Notes under the pieces: generated by a model
Seen by the model: only the letters and a program-made list of their open reading frames with translations
What the model was told of the DNA's origin: nothing
Database searches by the model: none
Source: an uncultured Gemmatimonadota bacterium
GTDB taxonomy: Bacteria; Blakebacterota; Blakebacteria; Blakebacterales; Blakebacteraceae
Length of the DNA: 64,000 nucleotides
Direction of reading: 5' to 3'
NCBI GenBank assembly: GCA_964637695.1
Contig: CAZWVF010000002.1
Location: 3,445-67,444, forward strand
Shown: in pieces, positions 11,145 through 62,705 of the stretch
Layout of the letters: every line of letters starts with the position of its first letter
Numbering within the stretch: position 1 is the first letter of the stretch
Made by a program: the position numbers and the translations under genes

Positions 11145-11330
11145 CTAGGAGCCTGTCGGAGTAAGCCACCGGCTGCGGTCTGCGCCGGCAACCGGCCGAC
11201 GGCGTTGGCTTTCGCCGGATGTCCTCAACGTAGCACAGTGGCTACGTTTCCGGGCCTCCGGCTCAGCCGCCTGGTCGGGCCGGCGCCAGAGCAAACCTCG
11301 CGTTCGCCGGTTACTCCGACAGGCTCCTAG
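11145..11330. repeat. MITE-like element copy 1, about 184 bp with perfect 20-bp terminal inverted repeats.
   Basis: TIR CTAGGAGCCTGTCGGAGTAA ... TTACTCCGACAGGCTCCTAG. Identical to 34958..35142 over the full length. Internal palindromes are present, for example cgtagcacagtggctacg. It has no coding capacity. Confidence 0.8.
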
Positions 11331-11426: not shown

Positions 11427-11621
11427 TCACTTCGCACGCGCCTCATAGATTACAGCAAGGATACTCTCCGCTACGAGATCCGGCACATCCACATAAAGGT
11501 AATGCGAGGCCCCTTCCGCGACTGTGATCTTGCCATAGCCACCGCTATGCCTCGTCGCCGCGCCTTGCAGGCCGGGCCCGGCATCACTCTCGGTGCCGAC
11601 GTTTGTCACCTGACATGACAC
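11427..11621 (-). pseudogene. C-terminal remnant of an alpha/beta-hydrolase-like gene (truncated).
   Basis: The 64-aa ORF ends ...GASHYLYVDVPDLVAESILAVIYEARAK, resembling the C-terminus of alpha/beta hydrolases (GHF..E.PE.V...I..FL pattern). No N-terminal catalytic part is present. A related fragment lies at 24163..24215. Confidence 0.4.
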
Positions 11622-12361
11622 TAGGCAGATATCTTATCCAACCATTTCTCAATATTCGATGGAACATGAAGTACCAATGCGCGACCCTGTGCTCTCTTCT
11701 TGAGTAATCCTCTATCGCACAACCTTGACGCAGCTTCATGGATTGAAGCATATGTATAGGGCAGCCTATTCTTCAATGCGGTTGCTGAAAGAGGCTGGAG
11801 CAGAACCTGATGCATTATTTCTGCATCAAGTGAAGCACCGAGGATTGAACGGATCCTGAGGTCAGGACAAGCTTTAATGATCCATGAAACAGGACGAATT
11901 GCATCCCTCTTATCAGAAATCTGGTTATGCCAGAAGCCCCATCTCTCGAACAGCTCGAAAGATTCTCTCCGGGCATATTCTGTCAGTATTGGATTGATCG
12001 CGTATTGTGCAAAGAGGACACGTTTACCCTTGAGTGGGCTACAATGTGAAATTGCCTGATCTAACGTTGATGCTGTTGGATTCAATTCAATAGCCACACT
12101 CAAGATTGCTCCTGCAACTGCTGAAAACTGATTTTCAAGAGTCTTCAATTCTTTTGCCAGAAGACGGCCATTTACCAGTTGATGATGTATCGCCAGCCAG
12201 CTCGCGGCAGCCCAGAAGAGACGAGGAGAATCAGAAGCTGCTGAACAAGTACGAGCTAATAGAGATTCCGCAGAGACCGTCACCTGAGCAGGATCCACAT
12301 CAAATCCGACTCCAATCCTGGCCCATTGGGAATAAAGGCAATCTTCAATCGATGATTTCAA
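11621..12361 (-). CDS. HEPN-like protein with an Rx4H motif and a C-terminal wHTH; putative toxin/effector partner of the upstream nucleotidyltransferase.
   Basis: 246 aa containing ERWGFWHNQ (R-x4-H) and a C-terminal helix-turn-helix-like segment (YASIHEAASRLCDRGLLKK). The start overlaps the stop of the upstream NTase (ATGA). Local GC is markedly lower than the surroundings. Confidence 0.4.
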   Translation of the reverse strand: MKSSIEDCLYSQWARIGVGFDVDPAQVTVSAESLLARTCSAASDSPRLFWAAASWLAIHHQLVNGRLLAKELKTLENQFSAVAGAILSVAIELNPTASTLDQAISHCSPLKGKRVLFAQYAINPILTEYARRESFELFERWGFWHNQISDKRDAIRPVSWIIKACPDLRIRSILGASLDAEIMHQVLLQPLSATALKNRLPYTYASIHEAASRLCDRGLLKKRAQGRALVLHVPSNIEKWLDKISA

Positions 12362-12885
12362 TGTTGTTCTAAATAGAGTTCCATCTTATGTGCAGATGGA
12401 GCATCGAACTTAGCAATGCGATCCAACTGCGACCGGACATACTCTATCTCCTCCTCCGTCGGTGACAGCTCCTGCAGATCCGCAATATCTTCTGGTCTGA
12501 GTGAATGGAACTTCAGAAGTATCAGATCCTGTCTGCTCACCGATGAGATTAGAAAGCCACCAAATCGTCCAATTGATTGCAGACGATCGCAGAAATCTGA
12601 AGGAAGCACATCACGCCAGGCTGCTGCTGCATCATTCATCCATTTCTCAGGCAAACCCAGCTCTTCTGCAATTTCCATGATTTCTCTTTGGTACACTGAA
12701 AGCTTGGGATTGGAATAGACTACATCCACATCCAGGGTCCCTCGAATAATCCACCCTGAGAGAATTGCTGCAGCGCTGCCCACAATTACGCATTCCAGGT
12801 CTTCGCAGCGCTCCCCGAGCGCTCGAAAAGCTGTTTCAATCTCATCTTTTAGCATAGTTTTATTATATACTTTTTCCGATAACAA
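12358..12885 (-). CDS. Minimal nucleotidyltransferase (MNT/MntA-like).
   Basis: Pol-beta-type NTase motif VGSAAAILSGW...GTLDVDVV (hG[GS]...DxD) in the N-terminal half. 175 aa. It lies immediately upstream of, and translationally coupled to, the 246-aa HEPN-like gene. Confidence 0.55.
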   Translation of the reverse strand: MLSEKVYNKTMLKDEIETAFRALGERCEDLECVIVGSAAAILSGWIIRGTLDVDVVYSNPKLSVYQREIMEIAEELGLPEKWMNDAAAAWRDVLPSDFCDRLQSIGRFGGFLISSVSRQDLILLKFHSLRPEDIADLQELSPTEEEIEYVRSQLDRIAKFDAPSAHKMELYLEQH

Positions 12886-13195
12886 TCAATGAAAATTCCC
12901 TTCGTTCCACGGATCTGAGGATTTTCCCATTGCTGCAGCACTGGGGGACTGTTCAATCTGCCATCGCAATCCATCCAGAACCTGACCCGGGGAAAATGCT
13001 TTGCCGTATCGATAGTTACGGGCCGGACCTCTCTGCCAGATGCAGATATATAGATCGCGCCCGGCGGCAGCACCAATCCCCTGAATCACAGGTCTATCAC
13101 CTGTTCAGAGACATGAAAAGGACCTGCATCGGCCCGGTGATCACCCGTTCGGACATATGCCCACCATGAGGACACCAGCGCGTGAGTCGCGTGCC

Positions 13196-14428: not shown

Positions 14429-14689
14429 ATGCACGGAACGATTACACAACTGCGGGAAGATATCGATCGCATAGATCGATTCCTCGTCGAACTGCTGAAC
14501 CAGCGGGCCACTGCGGTCGTGCGGATCGGTCAGATCAAGAAGAGGGAAGGTCTGCAGGTCGAAGACAGCTCCCGGGAAGCGGATGTCGTGAAGCGGGCGG
14601 AAGACTCAAACCGGGGCCCGTTCAGCAGAAACGCAATTCGCAATCTCTTCAAGGCGATCATGTCGGAATCGCGCAAACTCCAGGCATAG
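14429..14689 (+). CDS. Chorismate mutase (AroQ class, CM_2).
   Basis: 86 aa all-helical, with the LREDIDRIDRFLVELLNQRA pattern typical of AroQ-type chorismate mutases. Confidence 0.75.
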   Translation: MHGTITQLREDIDRIDRFLVELLNQRATAVVRIGQIKKREGLQVEDSSREADVVKRAEDSNRGPFSRNAIRNLFKAIMSESRKLQA

Positions 14690-14711
14690 AGAACTTAAGA
14701 AGGCGGATCAA

Positions 14712-15725
14712 ATGGTCATCATCATGTCCCCCCATGCCACCTGTGCAGAGATCGAATCTGTGATCGACATCATTCACCGCGATGGCTACCAGACACATCG
14801 CTCCGCCGGTCAGAGCCGCACGATCATCGGTGTGATCGGTACAAGTATCGATCTGGATCCAAGGGATTTTGAACTGATGAACGGGGTCACCGAAGCGGTC
14901 AGGGTCACCGAACCTTATAAACTCGCCGGCAGGACCTTCAAACCTGAATCAACCATCGTCGAAGCCTCGGGTGTCGCATTCGGTGGAAATACGATCCCGA
15001 TTATCGCAGGTCCCTGCTCGGTAGAGAACAGGGAACAGATCATAATGGTGGCCGGGCTGGTGGCGGAGGCAGGTGCGAAAGGACTGCGCGGCGGAGCATA
15101 CAAGCCACGCACCAGTCCCTACTCCTTCCAGGGCCTGGGAGAAAAGGGCCTGCAGCTGCTGCGCGAAGCAGCCGATGAATTCGATCTCATTGCCGTAACA
15201 GAAGTATTGGAATCGGGCCGCATCGGGCTTGTGAGCCAGTATGCAGATATCCTGCAGCTCGGTGCCCGCAATATGCACAACTTCACCTTCCTCCGGGAGC
15301 TGGGGGAGCAGCAGAAGCCCGTTCTGTTGAAACGGGGCATCTCCGCCACCATCGAGGAATGGCTTCAGGCTGCTGAATACATCCTGGCCGGCGGAAACAG
15401 CAAAATCATCCTGTGCGAGCGCGGTATCAGGACTTTCGAGACCTATACCAGGAACACAATGGATATCAGCGCCATACCGGTTATTCACAAACTGAGTCAC
15501 CTGCCGATCATCGCCGATCCGAGTCATGGGACCGGCCGCCGCGACAAGGTTCTTCCGATGGCCAGAGCGTCAATAGCAGCCGGTGCCGACGGATTGATGG
15601 TCGAAGTGCATTCCGACCCCGATAACGCCCGCTCCGATGGAGCGCAGTCGCTCCGTCCTGAACAGTTCGAAATACTGATGAGTGAAATCAGACAGATGGC
15701 CGCTGTTCTCGACAGGAGTATCTGA
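14712..15725 (+). CDS. aroF: 3-deoxy-7-phosphoheptulonate (DAHP) synthase, class I-beta (Thermotoga type) with an N-terminal regulatory domain.
   Basis: IIAGPCSVEN, GAYKPRTSPY.F.GLG and DPSHGTG motifs of KDSA/DAHPS I-beta. Has an approximately 70-aa N-terminal ACT/FL-like domain. Confidence 0.85.
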   Translation: MVIIMSPHATCAEIESVIDIIHRDGYQTHRSAGQSRTIIGVIGTSIDLDPRDFELMNGVTEAVRVTEPYKLAGRTFKPESTIVEASGVAFGGNTIPIIAGPCSVENREQIIMVAGLVAEAGAKGLRGGAYKPRTSPYSFQGLGEKGLQLLREAADEFDLIAVTEVLESGRIGLVSQYADILQLGARNMHNFTFLRELGEQQKPVLLKRGISATIEEWLQAAEYILAGGNSKIILCERGIRTFETYTRNTMDISAIPVIHKLSHLPIIADPSHGTGRRDKVLPMARASIAAGADGLMVEVHSDPDNARSDGAQSLRPEQFEILMSEIRQMAAVLDRSI

Positions 15726-34957: not shown

Positions 34958-35142
34958 CTAGGAGCCTGTCGGAGTAAGCCACCGGCTGCGGTCTGCGCCG
35001 GCAACCGGCCGACGGCGTTGGCTTTCGCCGGATGTCCTCAACGTAGCACAGTGGCTACGTTTCCGGGCCTCCGGCTCAGCCGCCTGGTCGGGCCGGCGCC
35101 AGAGCAAACCTCGCGTTCGCCGGTTACTCCGACAGGCTCCTA
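34958..35142. repeat. MITE-like element copy 2 (identical to 11145..11330).
   Basis: The same 184-bp sequence with 20-bp TIRs. It lies between the 3' end of the HTH gene, whose TAG stop overlaps the element terminus, and the 5' side of tRNA-Arg(CCG). Confidence 0.8.
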
Positions 35143-35373
35143 ACGCGGTAGTACTTCTGACGCAGTTTCAGATTGAGCAATATTCAGCTCACTCTCCCTC
35201 TCACCACCCGTAGACAGGAATTCCTCGAATTCGTCCTTCATAATCAGATAGCGGCCGCCGACCCGCAGGCCGGGCACAATTCCGCTCTTGATATACTTCA
35301 GTACTGTCTGGCGCGACACACCCAGTATCTCTGCTACTTCGCTGACGAAATAGACCCGCCGCTCGACATCCAT
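35140..35373 (-). CDS. Excisionase-family (HTH_17/MerR-like) DNA-binding protein.
   Basis: VYFVSEVAEILGVSRQTVLKYIKSGIVPGLRVGGRYLIMKDEFEEFL. Start taken at the internal Met (MDVERR). The ORF track gives 35433. Confidence 0.6.
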   Translation of the reverse strand: MDVERRVYFVSEVAEILGVSRQTVLKYIKSGIVPGLRVGGRYLIMKDEFEEFLSTGGERESELNIAQSETASEVLPR

Positions 35374-44855: not shown

Positions 44856-46142
44856 TCAGCTTTCAGACTCACGTGCCAGTGCACGCCAGCCGATGTCCCT
44901 TCTGTAGTAGACACCCTCGAAATCGATCTCGGCACAACCACTGTATGCAAGATCAACCGCAGAGGCAATAGTATCGCTCATGGCAGTGACGCCCAGAACG
45001 CGTCCGCCGGCAGTGATGACCTGTCCATCACACCCGGCGGTGCCGGCGTGGAAAACTACCAGATCCTCCCTGCCTGACAGATTCTCCAGGCCGTTTATCT
45101 GAAAGCCCTTTTTATATGAACCGGGATAACCACCTGAGGCCATCACCACGCAAACGGCAGCACCCCGGTCAACCGAGAGTGCATCGGGTGAGAGTTCACC
45201 ATTGGCTGCATCGAGCAGGGCCACGGCCAGATCGCCCTTCACGAGAGGCAATACTACCTGCGATTCCGGGTCTCCAAAGCGGCAGTTGAATTCGATCACG
45301 TATGGATCTCCCAACTCATCAATCATCAGGCCGGCATAGATCACCCCGCGATAGTCGATGCCTTCGGCGGTAAAAATATCGAGCAGAGGCTTCATGACCC
45401 GAGAGTTGGTTTTTTCCATCACTTCCGGTGTGACGACCGGTGCGGGAGCATAAGCACCCATCCCGCCCGTATTGAGTCCGGTGTCCCCTTCGCCGACCGC
45501 TTTGTGATCCTGGCTCGAGACGAGGCTTACCAGATTGATGCCATCGGTAATCGCCAGGATCGATGCCTCTTCACCCTTCAGCATCTCCTCGATTACAACC
45601 ATATCACCGGCATCTCCGAACTGTCTTTCATCCATGATCTCACGGATGCTTCTGACCGCCTCCTGCCTGTCGGCGCACACGATCGATCCTTTCCCCGCGG
45701 CCAGACCCGAGGCCTTCACGACAATTCCCCCTTCACCCTCCTCCAGCCAGGCTATCGCCCGGGCGGAATCTGTGAATGTACGGTAAGCCGATGTCGGGAT
45801 TCCTGCACGATCCATCAGATCTTTTGCCCACGCCTTCGATCCCTCCAGCCGTGCTCCTTCAGCACCGGGACCGAAGCAGGCGATCCCCGCATCACGGATA
45901 CGATCCGAGAGCCCCAGGGTCAGGGGCAGTTCGGGGCCGACTACGACGAGGTCTACCTCTTCCTCAATAGCCAGGGAGGTGATGCCGTCCAGATCATCAA
46001 CAGCAACATTTCTGAGTGCGGCATCCGGGGCCATGCCCACGTTGCCGGGAGCTGCGATTATGGAAGAGACAGAAGGACATCGAGCCAGGCTCCAGACGAG
46101 CGTATGCTCACGGCCGCCGGAGCCGACAACCAGAACTTTCAT
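44856..46142 (-). CDS. purD: Phosphoribosylamine--glycine ligase.
   Basis: MKVLVVGSGGREHTLVWSL N-terminus, ATP-grasp domain. 428 aa. Confidence 0.9.
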   Translation of the reverse strand: MKVLVVGSGGREHTLVWSLARCPSVSSIIAAPGNVGMAPDAALRNVAVDDLDGITSLAIEEEVDLVVVGPELPLTLGLSDRIRDAGIACFGPGAEGARLEGSKAWAKDLMDRAGIPTSAYRTFTDSARAIAWLEEGEGGIVVKASGLAAGKGSIVCADRQEAVRSIREIMDERQFGDAGDMVVIEEMLKGEEASILAITDGINLVSLVSSQDHKAVGEGDTGLNTGGMGAYAPAPVVTPEVMEKTNSRVMKPLLDIFTAEGIDYRGVIYAGLMIDELGDPYVIEFNCRFGDPESQVVLPLVKGDLAVALLDAANGELSPDALSVDRGAAVCVVMASGGYPGSYKKGFQINGLENLSGREDLVVFHAGTAGCDGQVITAGGRVLGVTAMSDTIASAVDLAYSGCAEIDFEGVYYRRDIGWRALARESES

Positions 46143-46186
46143 GCAGGCACCATCTTGTTGAGAGGGATCGTTAAGGTCACCCTGTT

Positions 46187-46813
46187 CTACTTGCCAAAGC
46201 CTATCCCCAAACGAACGATCGGTCCAGTACTCGATACCTGGTTGAATGCAGGAGGCACGCCAGACACTGACAATGCATTGCCGTTATACTGAGCATATCC
46301 GGCTTCGAGCATGAGACTGAGCGGCAGTGCATCGAGGCTGATAATGAATCCGAGGTAGGCCTGGAATCCGATATCACCATTGGCCTCCAGGGTGTAACCG
46401 GCCGACACAGATTGAGGCAGGACATCCCAGAACGTAAAGTTCAGTCCGCCTGCGAAATACAGACCGAACCTCTCTCTTGCCCCCAGATTGATATATACAG
46501 AAGTGTATTGCAGATCGAAGGTTTCATTCCCGTCAGGACTCTCCCACTGAACCTTATCCATTGCCATGAAGCCGGGGCTGATAGTTAGCCCGAATATGTC
46601 GAATCCCACTTCGACTGACTTTATTCTTCGCCAGTCGAGTGATTGCGAATCGAAACCTCGGGACCAATTCCCCTGAGACTGACCGGCGAACACAGCGATA
46701 TAAGGATTGAAGATCTGAGCTTTCGCCGGCGCAGGAATCGATAAGGCAATGAAAAGAAGTGCGGCAGCGAGCGATGCTTTCACTTTATAACTGTTAAAAT
46801 GACCTCTGAGTAT
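46187..46813 (-). CDS. Outer-membrane beta-barrel (OmpA-like N-terminal/porin family) protein.
   Basis: Signal peptide (ASLAAALLFIALSIPAPAKAQ). Alternating amphipathic beta-strands with a C-terminal aromatic residue pattern (GIGFGK). Start set at the internal Met. Confidence 0.5.
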   Translation of the reverse strand: MLRGHFNSYKVKASLAAALLFIALSIPAPAKAQIFNPYIAVFAGQSQGNWSRGFDSQSLDWRRIKSVEVGFDIFGLTISPGFMAMDKVQWESPDGNETFDLQYTSVYINLGARERFGLYFAGGLNFTFWDVLPQSVSAGYTLEANGDIGFQAYLGFIISLDALPLSLMLEAGYAQYNGNALSVSGVPPAFNQVSSTGPIVRLGIGFGK

Positions 46814-46999
46814 CATGCATTCCTCGATGATTGTCGGGCCCTGTCGGGTGGCCCTTTTGGAAATAACGGATAACAATCGAGTTATTCCATTTCTTTAAAG
46901 CTATCCCATTGTCACATCGACCGCAACGAACCCTTCAAAACGGCTGCGATCATAAGGTAAACGGTTGAAACGGAGTAGTTGTGCACACTTGAAGAAGAA

Positions 47000-47076
47000 T
47001 GGCGGCCCTAGGAGGACTCGAACCCCCGACTCGCGGTTTAGGAAACCGCTGCTCTATCCACCTGAGCTATAGGGCC
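47000..47076 (-). tRNA. tRNA-Arg (anticodon CCU).
   Basis: Minus-strand GGCCCTATAGCTCAGGTGGATAGAGCAGCGGTTTCCTAAACCGCGAGTCGGGGGTTCGAGTCCTCCTAGGGCCGCCA. A perfect 7-bp acceptor stem, anticodon loop UUCCUAA and an encoded CCA. Confidence 0.9.
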
Positions 47077-47620
47077 ACGTAGGTTTTATGCGGGTTTGCG
47101 AGGCACTGTGGTCCTCGCGATTTCCCATTACACGTCTATTACACATTCGAATCCAGCCCCAGAGCAGCGGTCTCCGTTACACGTTGAGATCCCGTGCCGA
47201 ACTGAATCCGGTCCATAGCATCCACTAAGGACTCATCAGTAAGATGTGCATAACGTTAGGTAGTGGTCAACTCCTTGTGTCCAAGAATCTTGGCCATCTT
47301 GGTCAGTGGCACTTTTGCCTGACCAAACAGGAAGCACATGTGTGCCTCTTATGCCGATATCAGCATAATGCCTCAGGTCATGAAAGCTCCAATCTGCTAA
47401 AATTGAATGAGCAGATGGGCTCGTGCAAACGGCAGCAGCGTGGACATACAAGTTCATAGTCATTGTATTGACCAAGCACATTCTTTCCAGTAGGCTCTCC
47501 AGGTTCAACAGGTGCGGGCACACTATCAAGGATTCTCTTATTGCTGATATGAATCATTGTGTCCTGCCGCTTTCCCTGTAAAACACCTCTGAAACCATAA
47601 CATAGCATGGAGTAAATCCC

Positions 47621-48223
47621 ATGGAAAATATCGCAAGTATAGTTGCTGTTCTGGGAGTGTGGTTTGCCCTCATGGCCGTCCTGGCTCTTTGTGTTGAGGC
47701 TGTGATTGCAGGATTGAAACTTCCATTAACTGGTCTACGGGGAACAGCTTCCCCGGATGATGTACTTAATGAGGTCAGTGTTTGGCTTCCAAAGGATGAA
47801 ACAGATGCACATCAAGCCAGGATTAAAGCACTCAATAGTGCCCTCGAGGCTATTAAGGCAACGGTATTACCTGCCACTACATCACAAGAAGATTTTCCAT
47901 CTGAGGTTAATAAAGCCGTAGGTAAATATGTCAAAAGTGAAGCAAATAGAAGAGCCTACATTCGACTATTAGCTGTTGTATTTGGAATTGGATTCGCCTT
48001 CCTGTTCCGAATTGACACTGTTCAAATTTTATCTCCCCTAATTGATTTCAAATCAACATTCAGCATCTGGAAAGAAGCATTAACATCAGAATCAACCTTT
48101 GTAGTGGGTGTGATTCTGAGTGGAGTTGCTGCCAGTGCTGGGTCGAGTTTCTGGCACGATAAATCCGCCCAGTTGCGGCTGTTGAAAACTGCCAGTGAGG
48201 AGATAAAAAAAGTAACTAAGTAG
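47621..48223 (+). CDS. Hypothetical membrane protein in a low-GC region.
   Basis: 200 aa with three predicted TM segments and no recognisable family. Local GC is lower than the flanks. Confidence 0.4.
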   Translation: MENIASIVAVLGVWFALMAVLALCVEAVIAGLKLPLTGLRGTASPDDVLNEVSVWLPKDETDAHQARIKALNSALEAIKATVLPATTSQEDFPSEVNKAVGKYVKSEANRRAYIRLLAVVFGIGFAFLFRIDTVQILSPLIDFKSTFSIWKEALTSESTFVVGVILSGVAASAGSSFWHDKSAQLRLLKTASEEIKKVTK

Positions 48224-48288
48224 CTTTAGCCTATGGACCGTGAGTCAAACAAACTCGGTATACTTACAGGAATAATGGACTCGGTTTA

Positions 48289-49626
48289 TTACTCACCGGT
48301 TATGCCCTGCGATCCTGATTCAACTGCTTCCAGGATTGCTCTGATATTCTCTGCCGGAGTATCAAGGGCGATGTCGGCACCAGATGTAGAGAGTATGAAG
48401 CGAGGATCATCCTGCCTGTCTTCAAGGATCTTCTTGCATTGGCTCTTTATCTCTTCAGGTGTGAATTTCCCAATGTTCGGACCATCAAGACCACCCAGCA
48501 TTGTCAACTCATCCCCTATTATCTCGCGAGCAACGGAGAAACTGTCACGATGGTCAATGACGAATCCCAATACATTCGGCAGGTCAATTAAAAGTTCCAG
48601 AGCAGAGAGGAATTTGGCGCCTGTATGGTGAATAACAACCGGGCCATTGATTTGCGGCAAAACTTCATTAAATACCGGAAGAGAAATTGTCTCTGCAATC
48701 TCAAGGCTGACCACTGATGGATTGAGAAAGACAACGGGCAGAGCTATAAAATCGGCCCCGCGAGCAAACTGGGCATTTGCCCAGTTGATGAAGAAAGTTC
48801 GTGTTATCTCAAGAAGACTTTCAGTTCCTGCGTGATTGAACAGAATTGTCTGCAGCCATCCTTCCAGCCCCATTATCATCATAGGAAGATCAACCGGACT
48901 CATGGCTATTCCTGCAACCATGGTCTCCTTGCCATGTTCCGAAACGAGAAGATCGAGTGCTTCAAGCATATACTGGAGTCCAGGGCAGGAATCGATATCA
49001 GGCACAGTTAGATCTGCAATTTCGTCTGAAGAAGATATTGCGGGTTGCCGGAGATTCGGAGGCTGGGATTCAAAATGTTCACACCGTGAACCAAAAGCCT
49101 CTCCTTCATATGGCAGTACGAAAGGCATGAAGACGATATCCGCCCTGAGTAATTTGATGTTCTCGGCCGAAGTATACATCATGGCCGATGCGCCTATGAT
49201 TTTGGCTCCGACTTCGACCGCTTTATTGACGAACTCTACAGGTGGTACGTCGTTGCCCAGATCGTGAACCTCCCACCTTGTTGCTTTCAGGAACATGACA
49301 ACCATACGGCGGCCGAGAGCGTGGAAGTCAGCCTCGATATTCCCCAGAACGACCGGTCCCAGCAGCAGATCTGGTTTCGAATCAGCAGCTCGATCGCTCG
49401 CTATCTGTTCGAGTATATCCCCGGCGATTTTTGCAGCAATGTAACTTTGAGCAAGTGAAATATCCTCCCTCATCCACCGTTCACCTACTTCTTTGAGCAC
49501 CGGATCGAGGATTTCATCCATAAGCCGGTCATACCCATTGATTCCTGCCCACTCCTTCATCCGTTCGACTGCTGTCGACCTGTCTCCGGCATCTATTTTC
49601 TGGATCAGTTCTTCAATTAGTTCCAT
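48289..49626 (-). CDS. Fusion of a cobalamin-binding corrinoid domain and a URO-D-like (MtaA/CmuA-family) methyltransferase domain.
   Basis: N-terminal B12-binding cap plus Rossmann domain with DxHxxG (EADFHALGRRMVVMFL...GASAMM). C-terminal uroporphyrinogen-decarboxylase-like methyltransferase fold. Confidence 0.6.
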   Translation of the reverse strand: MELIEELIQKIDAGDRSTAVERMKEWAGINGYDRLMDEILDPVLKEVGERWMREDISLAQSYIAAKIAGDILEQIASDRAADSKPDLLLGPVVLGNIEADFHALGRRMVVMFLKATRWEVHDLGNDVPPVEFVNKAVEVGAKIIGASAMMYTSAENIKLLRADIVFMPFVLPYEGEAFGSRCEHFESQPPNLRQPAISSSDEIADLTVPDIDSCPGLQYMLEALDLLVSEHGKETMVAGIAMSPVDLPMMIMGLEGWLQTILFNHAGTESLLEITRTFFINWANAQFARGADFIALPVVFLNPSVVSLEIAETISLPVFNEVLPQINGPVVIHHTGAKFLSALELLIDLPNVLGFVIDHRDSFSVAREIIGDELTMLGGLDGPNIGKFTPEEIKSQCKKILEDRQDDPRFILSTSGADIALDTPAENIRAILEAVESGSQGITGE

Positions 49627-49991
49627 CGTGGAACCTCATGAAAAGGACAGATTTGAGGTGCCTTTTCAACCGCGGGATAATAGAAGATGATAACTTACAT
49701 AACTTCGTTATTCCAAATCCGTTGTCATCAACGGACCGGAAAAAGATGGTACCGGAAAAGAGTCAGGAATTCATCAGTTCCTCTCATATATGCATGATTC
49801 CCTTTTACATGCATAATCCGGCCCGGACATTGAACCTCTCCTGATCGCATATGAGCACTTCTTCACTCTACCGAGAGAAGGGAGTGTCGTGGCCATGGAA
49901 TATTAATAAAAAGACTTTAGAGTCTGATTTGCAGATTGAGCCATCTGCTGTTATGTTCAGAGTAACTTTTACACTGAAAGGCAAACTGGAG

Positions 49992-51365
49992 ATGAGTGAG
50001 GAAAGACAACCTACAGTTGATGAACTGCTGGCCAAAGCATACCAGCCGGCCAAAGACGCCATGCGACTCCACCCCTTTTACCGGGGCAAGATCGAGGTCG
50101 TCCCGAAGTGCCAGATCCGCGACTTCAATGACTTCGCTATCTGGTATACCCCGGGAGTGGCCGAGCCGTGCAAGGACATTGCAGAGAATCCCGACAAGGT
50201 ATTCGAGCACACGAACAAGGCCAACATGATCGCCGTGGTGAGCGATGGCTCGCGGGTACTGGGTCTGGGCAACATCGGGGCCGAGGCCGCCATCCCGGTC
50301 ATGGAGGGCAAGGGGATCCTCTTCAAGTACCTGGGCGGTGTTGACGCTTTCCCCATCTGCTTGAATACGCAGGACAAGGAAGAGATCATCCAGATCGTCA
50401 AGGCCATTCAGCCCTGTTTCGGCGGTATCAACCTCGAAGACATCGAGAAGCCGAAGTGTTTCGAGATCCTGGACACGCTGCGCGAAGAGTGCCACATTCC
50501 GGTCTGGCACGACGACCAGCAGGGCACGGCGACGGTGACCGTGGCCGGTGTCATCAACGCACTCAAGGTTGTGGGCAAGGATAGAGAGAAGGTCAAGACC
50601 GTCCTCTACGGCGCCGGTGCCTCCAACGCACGGATCGCCCGGATGCTTATCACATGGGGCCTCAACGCCGACCAGATGCTCCTCTACGACTCGAAGGGCC
50701 CCCTCCACATGGGTCGGACCGAGTTCCAGGAGACCGAGCCGGAGAAGTGGTATCTCTGTCAGAACACGAACGCCGAGAACATAGATGTCCCCTTCGAGGA
50801 AGGGATCGAAAACGCTGACATGCTGATAGCCCTTTCCCGCTCCGGCCCCGACATCATCGACAAGTCGGCCGTGGCCAAGATGGCCAAGGACTCGATCGTC
50901 TTCGCCTGTGCCAACCCGATACCCGAGATCTGGCCGTGGGACGCGAAGGAAGCCGGTGCCCGCATCATGGCAACCGGTCGTTCCGACTTCGACAACCAGG
51001 TCAACAACTCTCTCGGGTTCCCGGGCATCTTCCGCGGCACCCTCGATGTGGCCGCCTCAACGATCACCGACGAGATGTGCATCGCGGCCGCCGATGAACT
51101 GGCCAGATGCGCCGAGGACAAGGGGATTCACGAGGGTTACATCATTCCGACGATGGATGACTGGGAAGTCTTCCCGCGTGAAGCTGTGGCCGTAGGTCAG
51201 AAGGCCATCGAACAGGGCCTTGCCCGTATAGAACTCACACCCGAGCAGGCCTATGAGACTGCCGAACGGATCATCAAGCGGGCACGTGAGGAGACTATCT
51301 GGCGGATGAAGGAAGGATTCATCCCCACAGCCCCGGAGGATGCGAAGCTGACAACCGGGGGTTGA
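49992..51365 (+). CDS. maeB: NAD(P)-dependent malic enzyme (short type).
   Basis: Malic enzyme motifs WYTPGVAEPC, VSDGSRVLGLGNIGA and FEDI.KP.CFE.LD. The ORF track starts at 49851. An internal start at 49992 (MSEERQ) or 49953 (MFRV) gives the canonical N-terminus. Confidence 0.8.
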   Translation: MSEERQPTVDELLAKAYQPAKDAMRLHPFYRGKIEVVPKCQIRDFNDFAIWYTPGVAEPCKDIAENPDKVFEHTNKANMIAVVSDGSRVLGLGNIGAEAAIPVMEGKGILFKYLGGVDAFPICLNTQDKEEIIQIVKAIQPCFGGINLEDIEKPKCFEILDTLREECHIPVWHDDQQGTATVTVAGVINALKVVGKDREKVKTVLYGAGASNARIARMLITWGLNADQMLLYDSKGPLHMGRTEFQETEPEKWYLCQNTNAENIDVPFEEGIENADMLIALSRSGPDIIDKSAVAKMAKDSIVFACANPIPEIWPWDAKEAGARIMATGRSDFDNQVNNSLGFPGIFRGTLDVAASTITDEMCIAAADELARCAEDKGIHEGYIIPTMDDWEVFPREAVAVGQKAIEQGLARIELTPEQAYETAERIIKRAREETIWRMKEGFIPTAPEDAKLTTGG

Positions 51366-51645: not shown

Positions 51646-53931
51646 TCACCGAACCGGGTCCTTCCCCGCTTCCACAGCCTTACGGATAGCCGCGCCCAGC
51701 TCTTTCAGTATAAAGGGCTTCCTTATATAATCCCTGATACCCAGTTCTCCCATTTTCTCGGGTGTAACAACCTCGCTGAAACCGCTTGTGAGAATAACCG
51801 GTATATCATCTCTCAATTTCATGACCTCCTCAATTAATTCCGTGCCTGTCATGTCCGGCATGATCTGGTCGGTTATGATTAAATCAAATCGATCGGGAGA
51901 TTTCTTGAACATTTCCAGAGCTTCTACACTGCTGATCATGACAGTGACGTCATAACCGAAATCCTGGAGCATTTCCCTGCCAAGATCAGCGATCGCCTCT
52001 TCGTCGTCCACAAAGAGAATCCGTTCCTGTCCTTTCAGATCGACTTCTTCTTCGGGGTCTTCGACTTCCGTTTCGATATCAACCCACGGCAAATAGACCT
52101 TGAAAGAGGTACCTTCTCCCGGTTCACTGTTAACAGTGATCTCTCCGCCGTGGCTGGCAACTATACCGTGAACCACGGACAGCCCCAGACCCGTACCTTC
52201 GCCTGTTTCACGTGTAGTGAAAAACGGCTCGAAAATCCTGTCTGCTATCTCCTTTTCCATACCACAACCAGTATCACTGACGGTCAGTCTGACATGCCGG
52301 CCTTCTTTGAGGTTCGGATGTGTCGTTATAAAATCTGCATCCACGTCAAACCGTTCCAGTTTTACTTCCAGCACTCCACTTGTATCGCGCATCGCCTGGT
52401 AAGCATTCGTACAGAGGTTCATCAACACCTGGTGCATCTGTGAAGGATCAGCGAGAATGGCACCTGCATCGGGACTGATATCCTGGCGAATCTCGATTGT
52501 CGACGGCAGAGTTGCATGAAGCAGTTTCAAGACCTCTTTGATGAGGAGCTGGAATTCAACGATAGTCTTCTCCTGTTCAACCTCCCTGCTGAAAACCAGG
52601 ATCTGTTTCACCAGATCCCTTGCGCGGTTGGCAGCTTTGTTCACATTGCTGAGTTTGGCATAGGCATCACTGTCCGGTGCCAGCTGGCTCTGAACCATCC
52701 CGAGGTATCCGAATATGGGTGTGAGGATATTGTTGAAGTCATGTGCGATACCGCCTGCCAGAGTACCTATTGTCTCCAGTCTCTGCGATCTTCTCAATTG
52801 GGTTTCAAGCTGTATTTTCTCCTGCGATGTTTTCTCTCTCTCGGCAACCTCCCTTTCAAGTTTGGCCAATACCTGTTCGAGCTCTTCGGTGCGCTCTCTC
52901 ACCTTCATTTCAAGTTGCTCCCGATGGTACTTCAATTCCTCTTCGGCCTGTTTCCTTTCGGTGATATCACGGATGATACCTACTGAACCGAGAAATTCCC
53001 GTGAATCCGCATCGTCCCCGCTCACATACAGTCCTGAACTGCTTACTTCCATAACTCTGGCACTATCCACCACAGTTGAAAGCTGGCCCTGGATAGTATC
53101 GATATCTCCCTTTATCTTTAACATTACTTCCAGGTTCCTGGTCCTGCGGTCATCGGTTCTTCTTTCATCGAACAGTTTGGGAGCCAGGGTATCACCTGTT
53201 TCACTGCCTCTGAGTGAAGGTAGAAGATCTGAGCGACCGGGAGGTGTTTCTTCCGGGGCTGCTATCAGCTCTCTGAAGTTCTTCCCGATTAATTCCTCAG
53301 GTGTATAACCGAGGTTCTGTATTGCATCATTCAAAAATGTGAAATTCCCATTCTTATCTATCCTGTAAACAATATCCGGGATGGTCTGGACTACAGTTCT
53401 GAACCTTTCTTCGATTGCCTTTAACTCACTCAACTTTGTTTCGAGTGTTGTGTTGGCCTGTGCCAGTTGGTCCTGTATCTCCACCAACTGACGATTATTA
53501 GTTACCGAATTGATGTATGTTGAGAGGAGGATATTGAGAATACGGTCACGATCAGGAAGAGAACCAGGCACAGGTACGGTGCAGTCGAGACAATCGATCA
53601 CGATTTCACTGCTGTACGGTCTGAACAGCAGGCCGTCCGCTCCGCATTCCAGGCTCTTTACAATTTCTGAAGTTTCCAGCAGCGGCATGACAAGTATCAC
53701 ACGCAGATCTTTTAAACAGTTGTTCCCTTTTATTTCGCGGCAGAGTTGAAAACCGTCCATACCGGGCATTTGCAGATCACTGATGACGATATCGGGCTTG
53801 ATCCTGTCCAGACAGGCAAGCGCCTCCATCCCGCTATGGGTGGCATGAACCTTATATCCAATCCCTTCAAGCAGAGATTTGAGCTTCACCGCCTGCGCAG
53901 GGCTGTCCTGGATTATCAGTACATGTTTCAT
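51646..53931 (-). CDS. Hybrid sensor histidine kinase with N- and C-terminal receiver domains and PAS.
   Basis: REC ([12 protein letters not shown]), PAS, HisKA ([14 protein letters not shown]), HATPase_c, and a C-terminal REC ([13 protein letters not shown]). Confidence 0.8.
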
Positions 53932-53979
53932 TCACATATCTCCCAGGACTCCTGTATCACCCGATCGAATTTTTAAGTG

Positions 53980-55089
53980 TCAGACCACAACTCTGTCGTT
54001 GTCGCTCATGTCCTGATACCGGTGCTGTATCTCATACACTTTTTCCAGGTTATCCAGAAACAGATCGACTACCTGAGGGTCGAAATGGCTGCCCCTCTTG
54101 TTTTTTACTATCTCACACGCAGCTTCATTTGGCATTGCTTTTTTATAGGGACGTTTCGTCGTGACAGCGTCGAATACGTCGGCAACTGCACAGATGCGTC
54201 CCATAATGGGGATATCCTCACCTTTCAACCCGTTAGGGTACCCATTTCCATTCCACTGCTCATGATGTGAAATGGCGATCACTTCACCCGCTTTCAATAA
54301 CTCCGATCTGGAATCACCGAGTATCCTGGCCCCCATGATTGTGTGCTGCTGCATGATCCCCCACTCTTCGGCATCCAGTTTACCGGGTTTAAACAGGATT
54401 TCTTCGGGGATGCCTATCTTCCCTACATCGTGCATCGGGCTGGCATGCTTCAGAGCCTCTGAATCACCGGGGGAGAGGTTCATGGCATTTCCCAGCATGG
54501 AACAGTAGTAACTGACACGGTTGATATGCGCTGCCGTGTTGGTGTCTTTGTATTCCGCAGCAACCGCCAGACGGTGGATCGTCTCCAGATAGGCTTCGTG
54601 GGTCTGGCGCTGTGCTATCGCCATTTCATCGAGCGTTTTACGAAGGGCTTCGGTCCTCTTGTCTACCAGAGCCTCCAGCTCAGCCTGGTATCGTCTCAGT
54701 TCATCCTGGTGTTCCTTGACTTTGAGAAGAGAGGCAGTCCGCACCTGCAGTTCGGTCAGGTCCACCGGCTTGGCGATAAAATCATTTGCACCGGCTTTGA
54801 CGGCCCTGAGACGGTCTTCTTTCCCGGAGAGCGCCGTTACCATGATAATGGGAAGATCCTGTGTTTCGGGGTGTTCCCTGATCCTGCGGACTACTTCAAA
54901 CCCGTCCATGCCCGGCATGTTCACATCCATAAGGACCAGGTCGATGTCCAGCTTCGACATTGCCAGAGCTCCTACACCATCAGAGGCGACCTCAGCACTG
55001 TGGCCCAGGGACTCAACCATCTCCTTGAAGACCGCCCTGTTCAGCTCTTCATCATCAACGATCAGGATACGATGCCGGTTTTTCTTCAC
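53980..55089 (-). CDS. Response regulator with an HD-GYP output domain (RpfG-like).
   Basis: REC (LVLMDVNMPGMDG) plus HD-GYP (MHDVGKIG...HHEQWNGNGYP). Confidence 0.8.
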   Translation of the reverse strand: MKKNRHRILIVDDEELNRAVFKEMVESLGHSAEVASDGVGALAMSKLDIDLVLMDVNMPGMDGFEVVRRIREHPETQDLPIIMVTALSGKEDRLRAVKAGANDFIAKPVDLTELQVRTASLLKVKEHQDELRRYQAELEALVDKRTEALRKTLDEMAIAQRQTHEAYLETIHRLAVAAEYKDTNTAAHINRVSYYCSMLGNAMNLSPGDSEALKHASPMHDVGKIGIPEEILFKPGKLDAEEWGIMQQHTIMGARILGDSRSELLKAGEVIAISHHEQWNGNGYPNGLKGEDIPIMGRICAVADVFDAVTTKRPYKKAMPNEAACEIVKNKRGSHFDPQVVDLFLDNLEKVYEIQHRYQDMSDNDRVVV

Positions 55090-55502
55090 CCTTGAACCTG
55101 TTTCTCAGCTCCTTCAATTCTCAATTGATCCAGAACACCGGGTATTTTATCGAACTCGGTCGATTTGTCGAAGAAATAACCGGCACCAAGTTCGAAGCAT
55201 TTGGTTCTGTACTGTTCGTACGGATAGTTGGTCAACACTATGACTGTTGTCTTAGGGTTGCTCCTGCTGATGTTCCGCAAAACATCCAGACCACTGCCAA
55301 GGGGCATTTTGATGTCCAGGATGACCACCTCCGGTGCCATTTCCCTGACAACCCTGGTTCCATCCAGTGCGTTCTCCGCTTCACCGACAACGCACACCTC
55401 GTCGAGACTGGATAAGAGCTCTGTTAATCTTGTCCGGATGATTTCAGAATCGTCTATGACAACTACATCCATCACACTCTCTCTGGCTCTGGTCAGTATC
55501 AA
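55086..55502 (-). CDS. Single-domain CheY-like response regulator.
   Basis: 138-aa receiver domain (VVILDIKMPLGSG). Overlaps the upstream gene by 4 nt. Confidence 0.75.
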   Translation of the reverse strand: MILTRARESVMDVVVIDDSEIIRTRLTELLSSLDEVCVVGEAENALDGTRVVREMAPEVVILDIKMPLGSGLDVLRNISRSNPKTTVIVLTNYPYEQYRTKCFELGAGYFFDKSTEFDKIPGVLDQLRIEGAEKQVQG

Positions 55503-55649
55503 GAATCTCTCTTCCGTCGCTGGATTTCATCTTTTCCGTGAACTCCCTCACCGGATCATACCCGGCTCATGCTGTGCGGAGTATCAGACGGATTCTGAAA
55601 TTGATGTAGGATAATCGCCCACGTACTTGTAGGGCTTTGTCCTACAAGT

Positions 55650-56282
55650 TTACTCAATCAGGTCATTCTGAATCGCGTAGTAAGTCAGCTCTGCGTTTGT
55701 CTTCAGGTTTAATTTATCCAGGATCCTCGCTCTGTAAGTACTGATGGTTTTGGCACTCAGGGAGAGCTGTTCAGCGATTTCCTTGTTTCCGACCCCAGAG
55801 GCGATCATACGCAGAACTTCATACTCCCTGTCTGAGAGTTGTTCGTGCAGCGGCTTGTCACTATCGACCTGGATATAGGCCGCCAGCCTCTGAGCAAGAT
55901 TGGCGCTGACATATTTCTGGCCGGCCAACACCTGCTGAATCGCGGATATCAGTTCGTCCGGAGCAGTATCCTTTGTAACGTACCCTGAGGCTCCTGATTT
56001 GAAACAGCGTACGGCATACTGCTCTTCCGGATGCATGCTCAGCATCAGGATATTCTGTTCCGGCTTCATCTCTTTCACCTGCTTGAGTATTTCTATTCCA
56101 CTTCGGCCGGGCAGGGAAATGTCAAGAAGGACCAGATCGTATTCATTCTTGTCTACCAGGCTGATTACCTCTTCACCTGTGGAAGCCTCATCGATGCTGC
56201 TGATATCTTCTATATCACTGAGGATCTGTTTAAGTCCCTCACGTATAAGCGTGTGATCATCTGCCAGAAGAATATTGATCAC
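55650..56282 (-). CDS. NarL/FixJ (LuxR)-family response regulator.
   Basis: REC (LVLLDISLPGRSG) plus a C-terminal LuxR HTH (LSDREYEVLRMIASGVGNKEIAEQLSLSAKTISTYR). Confidence 0.85.
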   Translation of the reverse strand: MINILLADDHTLIREGLKQILSDIEDISSIDEASTGEEVISLVDKNEYDLVLLDISLPGRSGIEILKQVKEMKPEQNILMLSMHPEEQYAVRCFKSGASGYVTKDTAPDELISAIQQVLAGQKYVSANLAQRLAAYIQVDSDKPLHEQLSDREYEVLRMIASGVGNKEIAEQLSLSAKTISTYRARILDKLNLKTNAELTYYAIQNDLIE

Positions 56283-59200
56283 CCGCTGTATCCCTCTTCG
56301 ACCATCGGGATCAGCATCCTGACCGTCGTTCCCCTGCCTCTTTTAGCTTCAAAGGAGACACTCCCACCCAGCAACCGGGCTCTTTCCTTGATGCTGACAA
56401 TGCCGAATGAAGTCTGCTTGCCGATTTCCTCATCTTTGATGCCCCTCCCATTATCGCTGATTTCCAGGACTAGCTGATTATCCACTAGTCGGAAAACAAC
56501 CTTAACCTGAGTAGCTTTTGCGTGACGAGCGACATTGGTCATGATTTCCTGAAATACTCTGAACACGATAACCGATGTGTCTTTATCCAGTTTGGGGATC
56601 TGCTGGTCGACATCCATTTTGCATTTGATACCGGAAGCTTTATGAAATTCATCGGCATGCCATTCTATCGCTGCCACAATTCCCAGATCGTCCAGAAGTC
56701 CCGGTCTGAGCTCGGCGGAAAGTCGCTTCACTCTCTGAAGGGTTTCGTAAATCAGACCTGCTATGCCGTCTGCTTTTTCCTTAACAGCTTCCTGCTCTGG
56801 AAGCAGGTTTTTTTCAATCCACGAAATATCCATGTTCATTGCTGTCAGATTCTGTCCCAGTTCATCATGGATCGTCTGGGCAATCGAGGCACGTTCTCCT
56901 TCTCTGGCTGCCTGGATATGAGCTGACAGCATTCGCAGCTGTTCGTGAGATCGCAGAAGTTCATGTTCAATCATTTTCCTGTTGGTAATGTCCCACATAT
57001 ACAAGCGCTGTCCAACAACCACTCCATCCTTATCCATGTCAGCTAAATCACATTCAATAGTACGTTCTGTACCGTCCTGGCTTATACCTCTAAACTCGAA
57101 TCGCGTTGTCAGTTCTGCACCTTTGATCCGATCAGAAAGAAAAGCACTTAACCCATGCCAGTCATCAGGATGGACCAGCGAGTTCAGTGATTTCGATGTA
57201 ATTCCATCAACAGAATATCCAAACAGATCTGCGAATTTATCATTAAAGAATGTAATCTCGTCCTCAGGCTGGTAGATCATGATGGCAATCCCGGCCTTCT
57301 CGATAAGTTCTCGATACTTCTCTTCAGAAGTGATTAAAGCCTCTTCCATCAACTTCCGTTCAGTTATATCAACAAAAATAACTGCGAAATGGCCTTCTCT
57401 GGGGCAGAAGGCATGTGCGTTGTAATGTTTTTCCAGTTGCGCATTGAATCCTTCGAAGGTGACTGGTTCACCAGTTATCGCCACTTTGCCGTAATTCTGT
57501 ATCCAGTCATCTTCGATTCCCGGGAGAACTTCCTTCACAGTCCGGCCGATAATGTCGCTGGCCTTCAGTCCGGTCAACGATTCAAAGGCAGGATTAACCT
57601 CCAGGAAGCGGTAATCGATTGGATTCCCCTCCTCATCCAGGATTATTTCATGCAATGCAAATCCGTTGAGCATTTCAGTGAAGAGAGTTCTGAATTTCGC
57701 TTCGCTTTCTCTGACAGCATCCTGGGCCTTTTTACTCTCCGATGAATCCCGGGCAAGCACGATTATGCCGTCAACATCTCCTTCAGGAGACCTCAGAGGG
57801 TAATACGATTCTGATGTAAATACTTCACTGCCATCCTGTAGCTGATGACGAGCGTCCTCAATTCCTGTGTACTGACCATCCATCGCTCTCTTCATGAGGA
57901 TATCCATTCCCTGTTCCTCCATATACGGGAATATCTCCCATGGAACCCGCTTCTGATTGACTACCTCCTCCCTGGTAACTCCACGAATGTCCTCCATAGC
58001 TCTATTCCAGTAGGTTATTTCGAAATCTTTATTGAGAACAGCCAGACCATCGGTCATCGATTCAACGATGCTGCTGTAGAGCTTTTCTCTTTCCTTCAGA
58101 GCACTTTCCATCGCCTTGCGCTCGGTTATATCCTGTGCCTGGGCAATAAGACCGATCGGGGATCCATCAATATCCATCAGGACAGTACAGTCGGTTTCAG
58201 CCGGGAAAATTGTTCCATCTTCACGGAGCATCGAATACTCAACCAGTCCAAGGTTTTTCACCGTTTCGATAGTCCGTTTTATCCTAGAAGCAAGATGTTC
58301 ATGTTCTTCCGGCGGAAAAAATTCCGCAACATTGCGTCCTATCTGCTCCTGTATATCACCTTTTGTGGCATGCAGTTCAATAAACCTCTGGTTGCACATA
58401 CGAATGTTGCCTTCCAGATCGGTGTATACCGTTGAGGAAGGAGACAACTCGAACAGCGTTCTGAATTTCTCTTCGCTCTTCTTCAACTCCCCCTCTGCTT
58501 TCAACCGTTCAGTTATATCCCGCCCTGTTGCTGCAATGAAATATTCCCCTTCATTTTCGCCTGGGATCATACTGCCGCTAAACTCGAATGGTATCTTCCT
58601 GCCATCCTTTGTAATGAGCTCCATTGTGAATATATAATCTTCTCCTGCCAGTATTTTTTCTGCAGCGGCTATTGCCTTTTGAAGATCACGTGGAGTGCAA
58701 TATGAATCCGGGACTTTGAGTTCAGCGATTTCTTCATCAGAATAGCCGCTGATGTGATTAAAAGCCTGGTTCCATTTGACAGCTTTTCCAGAAGCTGGAT
58801 TAAAAATAAAAAATGTATCTTTTTGTACATTGAGAACCAGATCAGTGAATCCTACACTGGCTGACAGAGCCCTCCTGGTATTGTGCAATTCTGTTATATC
58901 ATTGAAGGTAGTGAATACCTGGTATGGCTTTTCCTCGCCTTCTCTGAACTGTGGTGTAGCATTTATCAGAATCCACCTGTGTTCTTCTTTGCCGGGATGG
59001 AATACACCCATAACAACATCCCGGACTGGTTTTCCTGAACTCAACGCGATCATCGACGGGTGAGTTTCGCCTGGAAAATCACTGCCATCTTCGTGAATCG
59101 CTTTCCAGCGGGAGTCGACAGAAGTCCTGCCCTGCATCTGGTCGATGGCGAGTCCCAGGATGTCCTCAGCAGCAGGATTTGCAGATATTATCGATCCTTC

Positions 59201-60121: not shown

Positions 60122-60357
60122 CTTTGATCACACTCCTGTATCAAGATCCATATAAATCCTTGTTTCTATAATTACTGTGATTTTACATCAGGTACGGGCT
60201 TATGACAATTGGCCGAAAAATCGCAGTGTGAAGATGTAATCGCATGGTTGCATTGAGTAGCAAATGATATGAAAATCTGTATCGGTATTGCGAAATAGAC
60301 TGTCGTCACTTACTTGCTTTATTGCGATGAAACATCCACTTATGGGAGCACCAGGAA

Positions 60358-62649: not shown

Positions 62650-62705
62650 AGTTTCTGGATATCGGGGTTTCTACTGTTTCCCAATTGACGACTGTGTAAT
62701 AACCT

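Follow-up and report, generated by a model that had tools for sequence, protein, structure and literature searches.

A horizontally acquired DUF6036 nucleotidyltransferase gene pair from a Blakebacterota genome as a candidate toxin-first relative of AbiE/MenAT modules

Introduction

What kind of system is encoded by two small, overlapping genes of foreign base composition in the genome of an uncultured Gemmatimonadota bacterium (Blakebacterota in the GTDB lineage), and which of their two products, if either, would be a toxin? The genes lie at positions 11621-12885 of the stretch analysed here, which comprises 64,000 nucleotides of contig CAZWVF010000002.1 (positions 3,445 to 67,444 of its forward strand) and is called the window below. 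An initial annotation read them as a polymerase beta-type nucleotidyltransferase (NTase) followed by a HEPN-like protein and compared the pair to the HepT/MntA (type VII HEPN-MNT) toxin-antitoxin (TA) modules. Our own tentative reading, to which we give a probability of about 45%, is that the cassette is a mobile, self-contained NTase module similar to AbiE and MenAT, in which the toxin gene comes first and is paired with a new kind of antitoxin and repressor. AbiE and MenAT have DUF1814 toxins; they were assigned to type IV and have recently been reclassified as type VII. The reading draws on the motifs of the NTase, the domain structure of its partner, the persistence of the pair across distant lineages and the occurrence of defective NTase alleles beside intact partner genes.

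Layout and expression of the cassette

Both open reading frames (ORFs) are on the minus strand, co-directional and together fill positions 11621-12885. The proposal of a translationally coupled pair of an NTase and a 246-aa protein held, with the strand corrected and the genes overlapping. The features of the locus are listed below; A3 is an alignment of the NTase with relatives down to 33% identity, and A2 is a 65-sequence alignment of the partner family. These alignments and a further one, A4, were too divergent for pattern scans.

12358-12855, minus strand: NTase gene, 165 aa, Pfam DUF6036
11621-12361, minus strand: partner gene, 246 aa, member of an unnamed family
12724-12783, minus strand: NTase catalytic core G25-S26-x15-D42-V-D44, including R38-G-T40-L-D42, conserved in 7 of 7 full-length A3 sequences
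12475-12513, minus strand: NTase C-terminal motif K115-x4-R120-x2-D123-x2-D126-L127 (alignment A3)
12358-12361, minus strand: TTGA start/stop overlap (sequence reading)
11837-12361, minus strand: N-terminal all-alpha domain of the partner, residues 1-175 (AlphaFold model, alignment A2)
11633-11830, minus strand: C-terminal winged helix-turn-helix (wHTH) of the partner, MarR/ArsR-like, residues 178-243 (hidden Markov model (HMM), profile, structure model, Foldseek)
12862-12889, minus strand: sigma-70-like promoter (consensus scan, 10 of 12 matches)
11620-13000: segment of low guanine-plus-cytosine (GC) content spanning the cassette and the promoter region (GC profile)
11145-11330: element resembling a miniature inverted-repeat transposable element (MITE), 186 bp, with 20-bp perfect terminal inverted repeats, outside the module

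The maximal NTase ORF starts at TTG 12885 and would encode the 175 aa originally assigned to it, whereas a start at ATG 12855 gives 165 aa. Because all close homologues are 165 aa long and begin at the equivalent of ATG 12855, and because TTG 12885 lies inside the -35 box of the promoter, the NTase was shortened accordingly. For the partner, the first ATG occurs only at about residue 190, and the start codon is the TTG at 12361, which shares bases with the TGA stop of the NTase gene (12358). This start is right because relatives overlap at the same place and all close relatives encode proteins of 242-246 aa. The sequence of the overlap is TTGA in the window and not ATGA, which is found, besides GTGA, in relatives. 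No Shine-Dalgarno sequence precedes the TTG start in the window, and the overlap implies that translation of the partner is coupled to that of the NTase. Overlaps of 4 to 14 nt between the two genes also occur at L007, L010, L013, L014, L015, L022, L023, and L026 (locus designations of this study).

The predicted promoter, a consensus match only, consists of a -35 box TTGATT (12889-12884), a 16-nt spacer, and a -10 box TATAAT (12867-12862). The -10 box is located 6 nt before the NTase ATG, and a Shine-Dalgarno sequence is missing. The same geometry, a -10 box followed after 5-6 nt by the start codon and no Shine-Dalgarno sequence, recurs at L007, L010, L013, L015, L020, and L026, so that at least seven lineages including the window have it; at L022 and L014, the NTase start has a Shine-Dalgarno sequence instead. 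Judged from this promoter geometry, from which the transcription start was deduced, the cassette mRNA is probably leaderless and bicistronic. The spacer sequence, TATCGGAAAA, which the three closest lineages have in common, is a possible operator.

The NTase combines DUF6036 with AbiEii-like motifs

The polymerase beta-type signature noted in the initial annotation was borne out: the GS...DxD pattern corresponds to G25-S26...D42-V-D44, and the protein matches Pfam DUF6036 with an E-value of 5.8e-16 (59.2 bits; gathering cutoff 23.6 bits). All eight diverse family NTases that were compared also exceed this cutoff (46-73 bits). The cassette NTase is therefore a bona fide DUF6036 member in every lineage tested and falls among the COG4849-like predicted NTases of DUF6036/DUF2204; its C-terminal motif region shows a weak match to DUF2204. 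No Pfam match to NTP_transf_2, the MntA-type family, was obtained at E<=1 for nine family NTases including that of the window. The literature searched contained no mention of DUF6036, PF19502, or HVO_A0114, and gave neither a function nor a partner for DUF6036.

Conserved positions in A3 are G25-[SG]26, followed after 15 residues by D42-x-D44, and further R38-x-T40-x-D42, W72-x-N74, D110, and K115-x4-R120-x2-D123-x2-D126-L127. Residues D110, K115, R120, D123, D126, and L127 are invariant in this alignment. The AbiEii toxins have been defined by hG[G/S]x15DhD, a motif III (KLxAaxxR, common to COG4849), and a motif IV (+DxxD), and residues R63, D67, and D69 of AbiEii were mutated in the same study (Dy et al., 2014, PMC3985639). 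According to a 2026 preprint, AbiEii T65 is the autophosphorylation site by which AbiEi silences AbiEii (bioRxiv 10.64898/2026.01.19.700257). In the window NTase, the x15 spacing and the R-x-T-x-D-x-D register are exactly those of AbiEii, with T40 at the position of T65. After the core it has a K..R..D..D series. This C-terminal series, K115-F-H-S-L-R120-P-E-D123-I-A-D126-L, is similar to motifs III and IV in residues and order, although K and R are 5 instead of 7 positions apart and the D usually follows an E or Q and not a basic residue. It may be a compacted counterpart of motifs III and IV of AbiEii/COG4849.

Searches with PADLOC models returned weak matches for six of the eight diverse family NTases (4e-5 to 5e-2, best 4.1e-5). 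Essentially all of these were to AbiEii models, the exception being one match to a Type I specificity subunit (E 0.028). The AbiEii match of the L015 NTase covers the motif III/IV region. Sequence searches of the Protein Data Bank (PDB) with both cassette proteins and both profiles matched nothing outside the wHTH of the partner, apart from a marginal match of the NTase profile to 5uvd, a 'nucleotidyltransferase-like protein' (E 0.33), and an hhalign comparison with a single MntA sequence was uninformative. MntA proteins differ from the cassette NTase in that they belong to NTP_transf_2, have the signature GSx10-13[DE]xD, and measure about 100-140 aa, whereas the cassette enzyme has the x15 spacer and an extra conserved C-terminal motif. 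By its motifs, the NTase looks like a miniature AbiEii-type enzyme, yet one outside DUF1814.

The partner has a winged helix and an unmatched helical domain

Word-indexed homology searches found only 14 close homologues of the partner, of about 246 aa, and in two other runs 18 and 9 proteins. The family became visible only in an exhaustive profile search, which returned 560 representative clusters at E<1e-3, 248 of them also at E<1e-10, with proteins of typically about 240 aa. Its members come mostly from uncultured lineages, Raymondbacteria and Wallbacteria among them. Neither the NTase nor the partner protein is named in the sources searched. Three partner positions are invariant in A2 (E32, W141, R171), W13, G17, R47, L48, W55, L68, and G84 are at least 90% conserved, and T38 is Ser or Thr in 63 of the 65 sequences.

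An AlphaFold model computed from A2 reached a mean predicted local distance difference test score (pLDDT) of 96.8 and a predicted template modelling score (pTM) of 0.92; with a shallow alignment as input, pLDDT was only 75. It folds residues 5-174 into about 11 short helices, which are followed by a winged helix at residues 178-243. The C-terminal wHTH that had been proposed from the sequence was confirmed by several approaches. Relatives match MarR_2 and HVO_A0114, the partner profile matches AdcR/ArsR structures in the PDB at E 1e-5 in the winged helix only, and Foldseek assigned the model a probability of 1.0 to MarR/ArsR. In Foldseek searches of PDB and BFVD, the winged helix alone was matched (MarR, ArsR, SmtB, CzrA; target-normalized TM-scores of about 0.4-0.7), and no match reached E<=1e-3. 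Scans of the 65 family members against Pfam, NCBIfam, and PADLOC gave HTH families only. The N-terminal domain has no match in Pfam, NCBIfam, or PADLOC and no structural match by Foldseek in PDB or BFVD.

Two other identities of the N-terminal domain were tried, and a Fic-like one was rejected. The string H59-H-Q-L-V-N64-G-R66 loosely recalls the Fic motif HxFx[DE]GNGR, and Foldseek listed proteins with Fic and wHTH domains; the superposition gave a TM-score of only 0.2 and a root-mean-square deviation of 17 Å, and the wider family does not conserve H59, N64, and R66. The other idea, that the domain supplies the C-terminal part which a split AbiEii would lack, was not supported by hhalign against an AbiEii, and no MenT or AbiEii structure was among the listed PDB matches.

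The cassette shares with HepT/MntA an NTase gene of minimal size that comes first and is translationally coupled to a gene for a larger helical protein. The assignment to HEPN-MNT did not hold, however. The R-x4-H motif that had suggested it, RWGFWH, is present at residues 140-145 of the partner, but a pattern R-x4-6-H arises in 77% of composition-preserving shuffles of this protein. In A2, the position of R140 is occupied by K or R in 50 of 65 sequences and that of H145 by His in 11 of 65; both R and H are found together in 6 of 65, and no aligned column has Rx4-6H in more than 8 of 65. In the model, RWGFWH falls within a largely non-helical segment. HEPN proteins form a four-helix up-down bundle in which a long helix begins with the motif; the model shows no such arrangement, and no HEPN entry was among the listed Foldseek matches in PDB and BFVD. 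None of the 65 members matched a HEPN or HepT model in Pfam, NCBIfam, or PADLOC, and hhalign detected no similarity of the partner to a HepT (probability 0.2%), an AbiEi (1.4%), or an AbiEii. The only similarity to PDC-M05A, part of the PADLOC candidate system PDC-M05 (NTase + HEPN), is weak and falls on the wHTH (residues 180-231) and not on a catalytic domain. Motif conservation, shuffles, the model, Foldseek, three HMM libraries, and hhalign together speak against a HEPN assignment of the partner, which was rejected. The cassette differs in this from both HepT/MntA and PDC-M05, and RWGFWH is, on this comparison of sequences, a chance motif.

The partner differs from the known AbiE antitoxins as well. 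Its 175-aa helical domain has no similarity to AbiEi/COG5340 or MenA1, the AbiEi models of Pfam and PADLOC match neither the partner nor its relatives, and the wHTH is C-terminal instead of N-terminal as in AbiEi.

The pair is kept across distant lineages in unrelated neighbourhoods

Loci were fetched for relatives with 80% to 22% identity, and every stop-to-stop ORF in them was searched with HMMs of the NTase and the partner. A DUF6036 NTase is encoded directly upstream of the partner, overlapping it by 4-14 nt, in 12 of 13 independent lineages and down to a partner identity of 22-25%. The paired lineages are the window, L007, L010, L011, L013, L014, L015 (Candidatus Wallbacteria), L020, L022, L023 (Candidatus Raymondbacteria), L025 (whose frameshifted copy was counted), and L026. 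In L012, a contig of 1.4 kb, the 412 nt upstream of the partner contain no NTase. A further lineage, L021, also has an NTase directly upstream, which is frameshifted. The partner is thus not a gene commonly found without an NTase, which would have spoken against a module. The two proteins co-diverge, and the NTase is the more conserved of them in 34 of 36 lineage pairs. An identical copy of the window cassette is present in five assemblies. Scans of sequence collections found one locus in GTDB genomes and five in metagenomes, mostly repeats of known ones.

The neighbourhoods of the cassette are mutually unrelated and often contain TA, abortive infection (Abi), or mobile genes. The relatives at L006 and L007 are neighboured by KatG on one side and by AAA_14, Fic, and HigB on the other. 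AbiEi/AbiEii and an integrase are encoded near L010, a wHTH-NTase and AbiEii near L026, and DUF669 and Prim-Pol/DUF5906 near L021; the last two neighbours make it likely, as far as gene content tells, that the L021 locus is a mobile element. A HepT/MntA pair is located 2 kb from the L013 relative, so that the two kinds of cassette share a niche. The neighbours at L023 are housekeeping genes. The family thus forms a conserved, autonomous two-gene operon in varied, often mobile or defence-related contexts, as is generic for TA systems. In this respect it resembles AbiE and MenAT, which are likewise bicistronic, overlapping, and mobile.

Two of these loci deserve a separate remark. At L026:2215-4344 and L010:4360-5822, relatives of the cassette occur within 1-3 kb of canonical AbiEii-AbiEi pairs, and both loci look like small TA/Abi clusters. 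The wHTH-NTP_transf_2 fusion at L026 resembles PADLOC PDC-M05A.

Base composition and surroundings of the window cassette

The low-GC character of the segment was corroborated. GC content is 0.38-0.50 at about 11620-13000 as compared to about 0.57 in the flanks, and the GC content at third codon positions is 0.446 for the NTase and 0.389 for the partner gene, as opposed to 0.61-0.68 for the neighbouring agmatinase, YeiH-like, MMPL, and DAHP-synthase genes. By this foreign composition, the cassette is horizontally acquired. Together with the retention of the pair in 12 of 13 lineages, this supports the original impression of an acquired cassette that looks like a TA or defence module. As for the checks proposed at the outset, the pair is conserved; TA, Abi, or mobile genes are frequent neighbours, but several loci are found among housekeeping genes.

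The MITE-like element that had been described next to the segment was also found. Its 186 bp at 11145-11330 are bounded by perfect 20-bp terminal inverted repeats (CTAGGAGCCTGTCGGAGTAA), and a near-identical second copy is located at 34958-35143, with boundaries sharp at the repeats. The two near-identical copies and their sharp boundaries suggest that the element transposed recently. Between it and the cassette lies a 64-aa ORF (11427-11621, minus strand), the putative pseudogene remnant of the initial annotation, whose GTG start overlaps the TAG stop of the partner gene. It has a host-like GC content of 0.595, is a singleton cluster in the protein collection, lacks Pfam and other family matches, and is called as a gene in three assemblies.

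The window cassette is flanked by agmatinase and YeiH-like genes. Beyond agmatinase (window 14429-15725 onward; L001:1-7933) follows a compact shikimate/aromatic amino acid operon of core metabolism, which encodes chorismate mutase, DAHP synthase, prephenate dehydrogenase, EPSP synthase, shikimate dehydrogenase, chorismate synthase, shikimate kinase, DHQ synthase, and DHQase II. Other low-GC stretches of the window, at 46000-50000 and 52000-63000 (0.44-0.50 vs. about 0.57), contain signalling genes rather than defence genes, among them a corrinoid/URO-D-type methyltransferase, multi-PAS histidine kinases, response regulators (HD-GYP-like and LuxR-type), and a DUF6599 protein.

Defective NTase alleles and the identity of a possible toxin

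At L006 (7690-8004) and L008 (217-531), the NTase gene has a clean in-frame deletion of 183 nt with respect to its intact counterpart at L007 (7507-8004). The deletion removes NTase residues of about 75-135, including D110, K115, R120, D123, and D126, and leaves the partner intact. The DNA of the deletion alleles is otherwise 100% identical to L007, and the deleted and the intact allele come from different samples. The shortened product, P0173 (104 aa), is on record from three contigs. From these sequences, the deletion is a population polymorphism. The NTase genes at L025 and L021 carry frameshifts, and L012 has a solo partner. P0090 (421 aa, L021:2225-3490) had the appearance of a fusion of NTase and partner ('Rosetta stone'), and was rejected as such because it results from a frameshift of 1 nt: the C-terminal part of the NTase can be read on in the +1 frame, down to the ATGA overlap that is usual for the pair.

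If the NTase served to restrain a toxic partner, selection should act against NTase-null alleles. These alleles beside intact partners, the AbiEii-type motifs of the NTase, the DNA-binding domain of the partner, and the faster evolution of the partner lead us to favour the NTase as the toxin.

A possible mechanism and its alternatives

Under the AbiE/MenAT-like reading, the module might work as follows. Transcription from the promoter, with its -10 box right next to the start codon, would yield a leaderless bicistronic mRNA. The 165-aa DUF6036 NTase would be a growth-inhibiting enzyme that, by analogy to AbiEii/MenT, adds nucleotides to an RNA target, for example tRNA 3' ends. The partner would be made by termination-reinitiation at the TTGA overlap. 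Its helical N-terminal domain may neutralize the NTase, either by binding or by induced autophosphorylation at the conserved T40, and its C-terminal winged helix, which in likeness to AbiE/MenAT is suited to autorepression, may repress the operon. A role of the cassette in phage defence is conceivable.

Several observations weigh against this reading. With 165 aa, the NTase is much smaller than the DUF1814 toxins (250-300 aa) and lacks their C-terminal helical domain. Neither the window NTase nor eight relatives match PF08843 (Pfam AbiEii), the window NTase itself has no AbiEii match in PADLOC, and its hhalign comparison with a single AbiEii was not significant. The gene order is reversed relative to AbiE/MenAT, and an NTase gene in first place with overlapping genes is the arrangement of HEPN-MNT, where the NTase is the antitoxin. 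Concerning the defective alleles, they were found via the partner protein, so that the reverse case would be invisible, and two of them are single-assembly frameshifts and possibly errors. Several loci, including L023 and the window, are flanked by housekeeping genes and not by defence islands, no cassette was found in viral contigs, and around the cassette we detected no convincing operator palindrome at the promoter or flanking direct repeats.

The order of the genes is also what a type VII module similar to HEPN-MNT would have, in which the NTase is an antitoxin that silences a 246-aa HEPN-type RNase toxin by nucleotidylation. The 4-nt overlap is as in MntA-HepT, the string RWGFWH is present, the canonical HepT/MntA pair near the L013 relative places such cassettes in the same niches, and T38, as a Ser or Thr in nearly all partners, could in principle be a modification site. 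We nevertheless regard this explanation as very improbable. The Rx4-6H pattern is not conserved in the family and is to be expected by chance in such a protein, the motif is predicted to lie in a coil of a domain with many short helices rather than a four-helix bundle, and the structural, HMM, and hhalign searches found no HEPN match. The NTase is not of the NTP_transf_2 type, and the 65 partner sequences contain no invariant Tyr as acceptor. Furthermore, a toxic partner left intact beside NTase-null alleles should kill its host. These alleles and the non-canonical TTG start of the partner gene could instead indicate that the window holds a decaying or inert remnant of an acquired cassette. 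This, too, is very improbable, since both window ORFs are intact and full-length and retain all family-invariant residues, the promoter matches the consensus at 10 of 12 positions, and the five assemblies carry identical cassettes.

A more serious but still unlikely alternative is a two-protein unit unrelated to TA systems. The partner could be a winged-helix transcription factor with a helical sensor domain that is controlled by, or recruits, the NTase (e.g., through nucleotidylation of the regulator or of a small ligand), or the pair could be a split NTase with the helical domain as the substrate-binding subunit, as in small-molecule NTases of the KNTase or Lnu type. Strict pairing and co-divergence would fit any obligate complex, the tolerated loss of the NTase and the housekeeping surroundings of L023, L025, and the window agree with such a unit, and E32, R47, W141, and R171 of the partner could form a ligand or protein interface. 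On the other hand, foreign composition, unrelated neighbourhoods, and the lack of a conserved third gene or regulon are typical of selfish or defence cassettes, the NTase motifs have the geometry of the toxin-type AbiEii, and a small-molecule-modifying enzyme would have no need of a DNA-binding domain. The toxin-first AbiE/MenAT-like module therefore remains the reading that we prefer.

Significance

More tentatively still, we propose that the window cassette may be the first recognized example of an undescribed and fairly widespread family of toxin-first NTase TA or abortive infection systems (at least 248 clusters at 50% identity), characterized by a DUF6036 mini-AbiEii, an antitoxin composed of an unmatched helical domain and a C-terminal winged helix, and a leaderless mRNA. 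The advance would be incremental, as other NTase TA systems with a variety of antitoxins have been described, and its use would lie in annotation and comparative work on NTase toxins. It would add a cassette that current tools and models for finding TA and defence systems (PADLOC, Pfam, NCBIfam) miss. If the NTase is the toxin, DUF6036 would gain a function, and the tRNA-modifying NTase toxins of the AbiE/MenAT class would be joined by a minimal enzyme of 165 aa that has a new, structurally unmatched antitoxin and an inverted gene order. The family would then offer a compact system in which to define the essential parts of NTase toxins and to learn how unrelated antitoxins silence one catalytic core.

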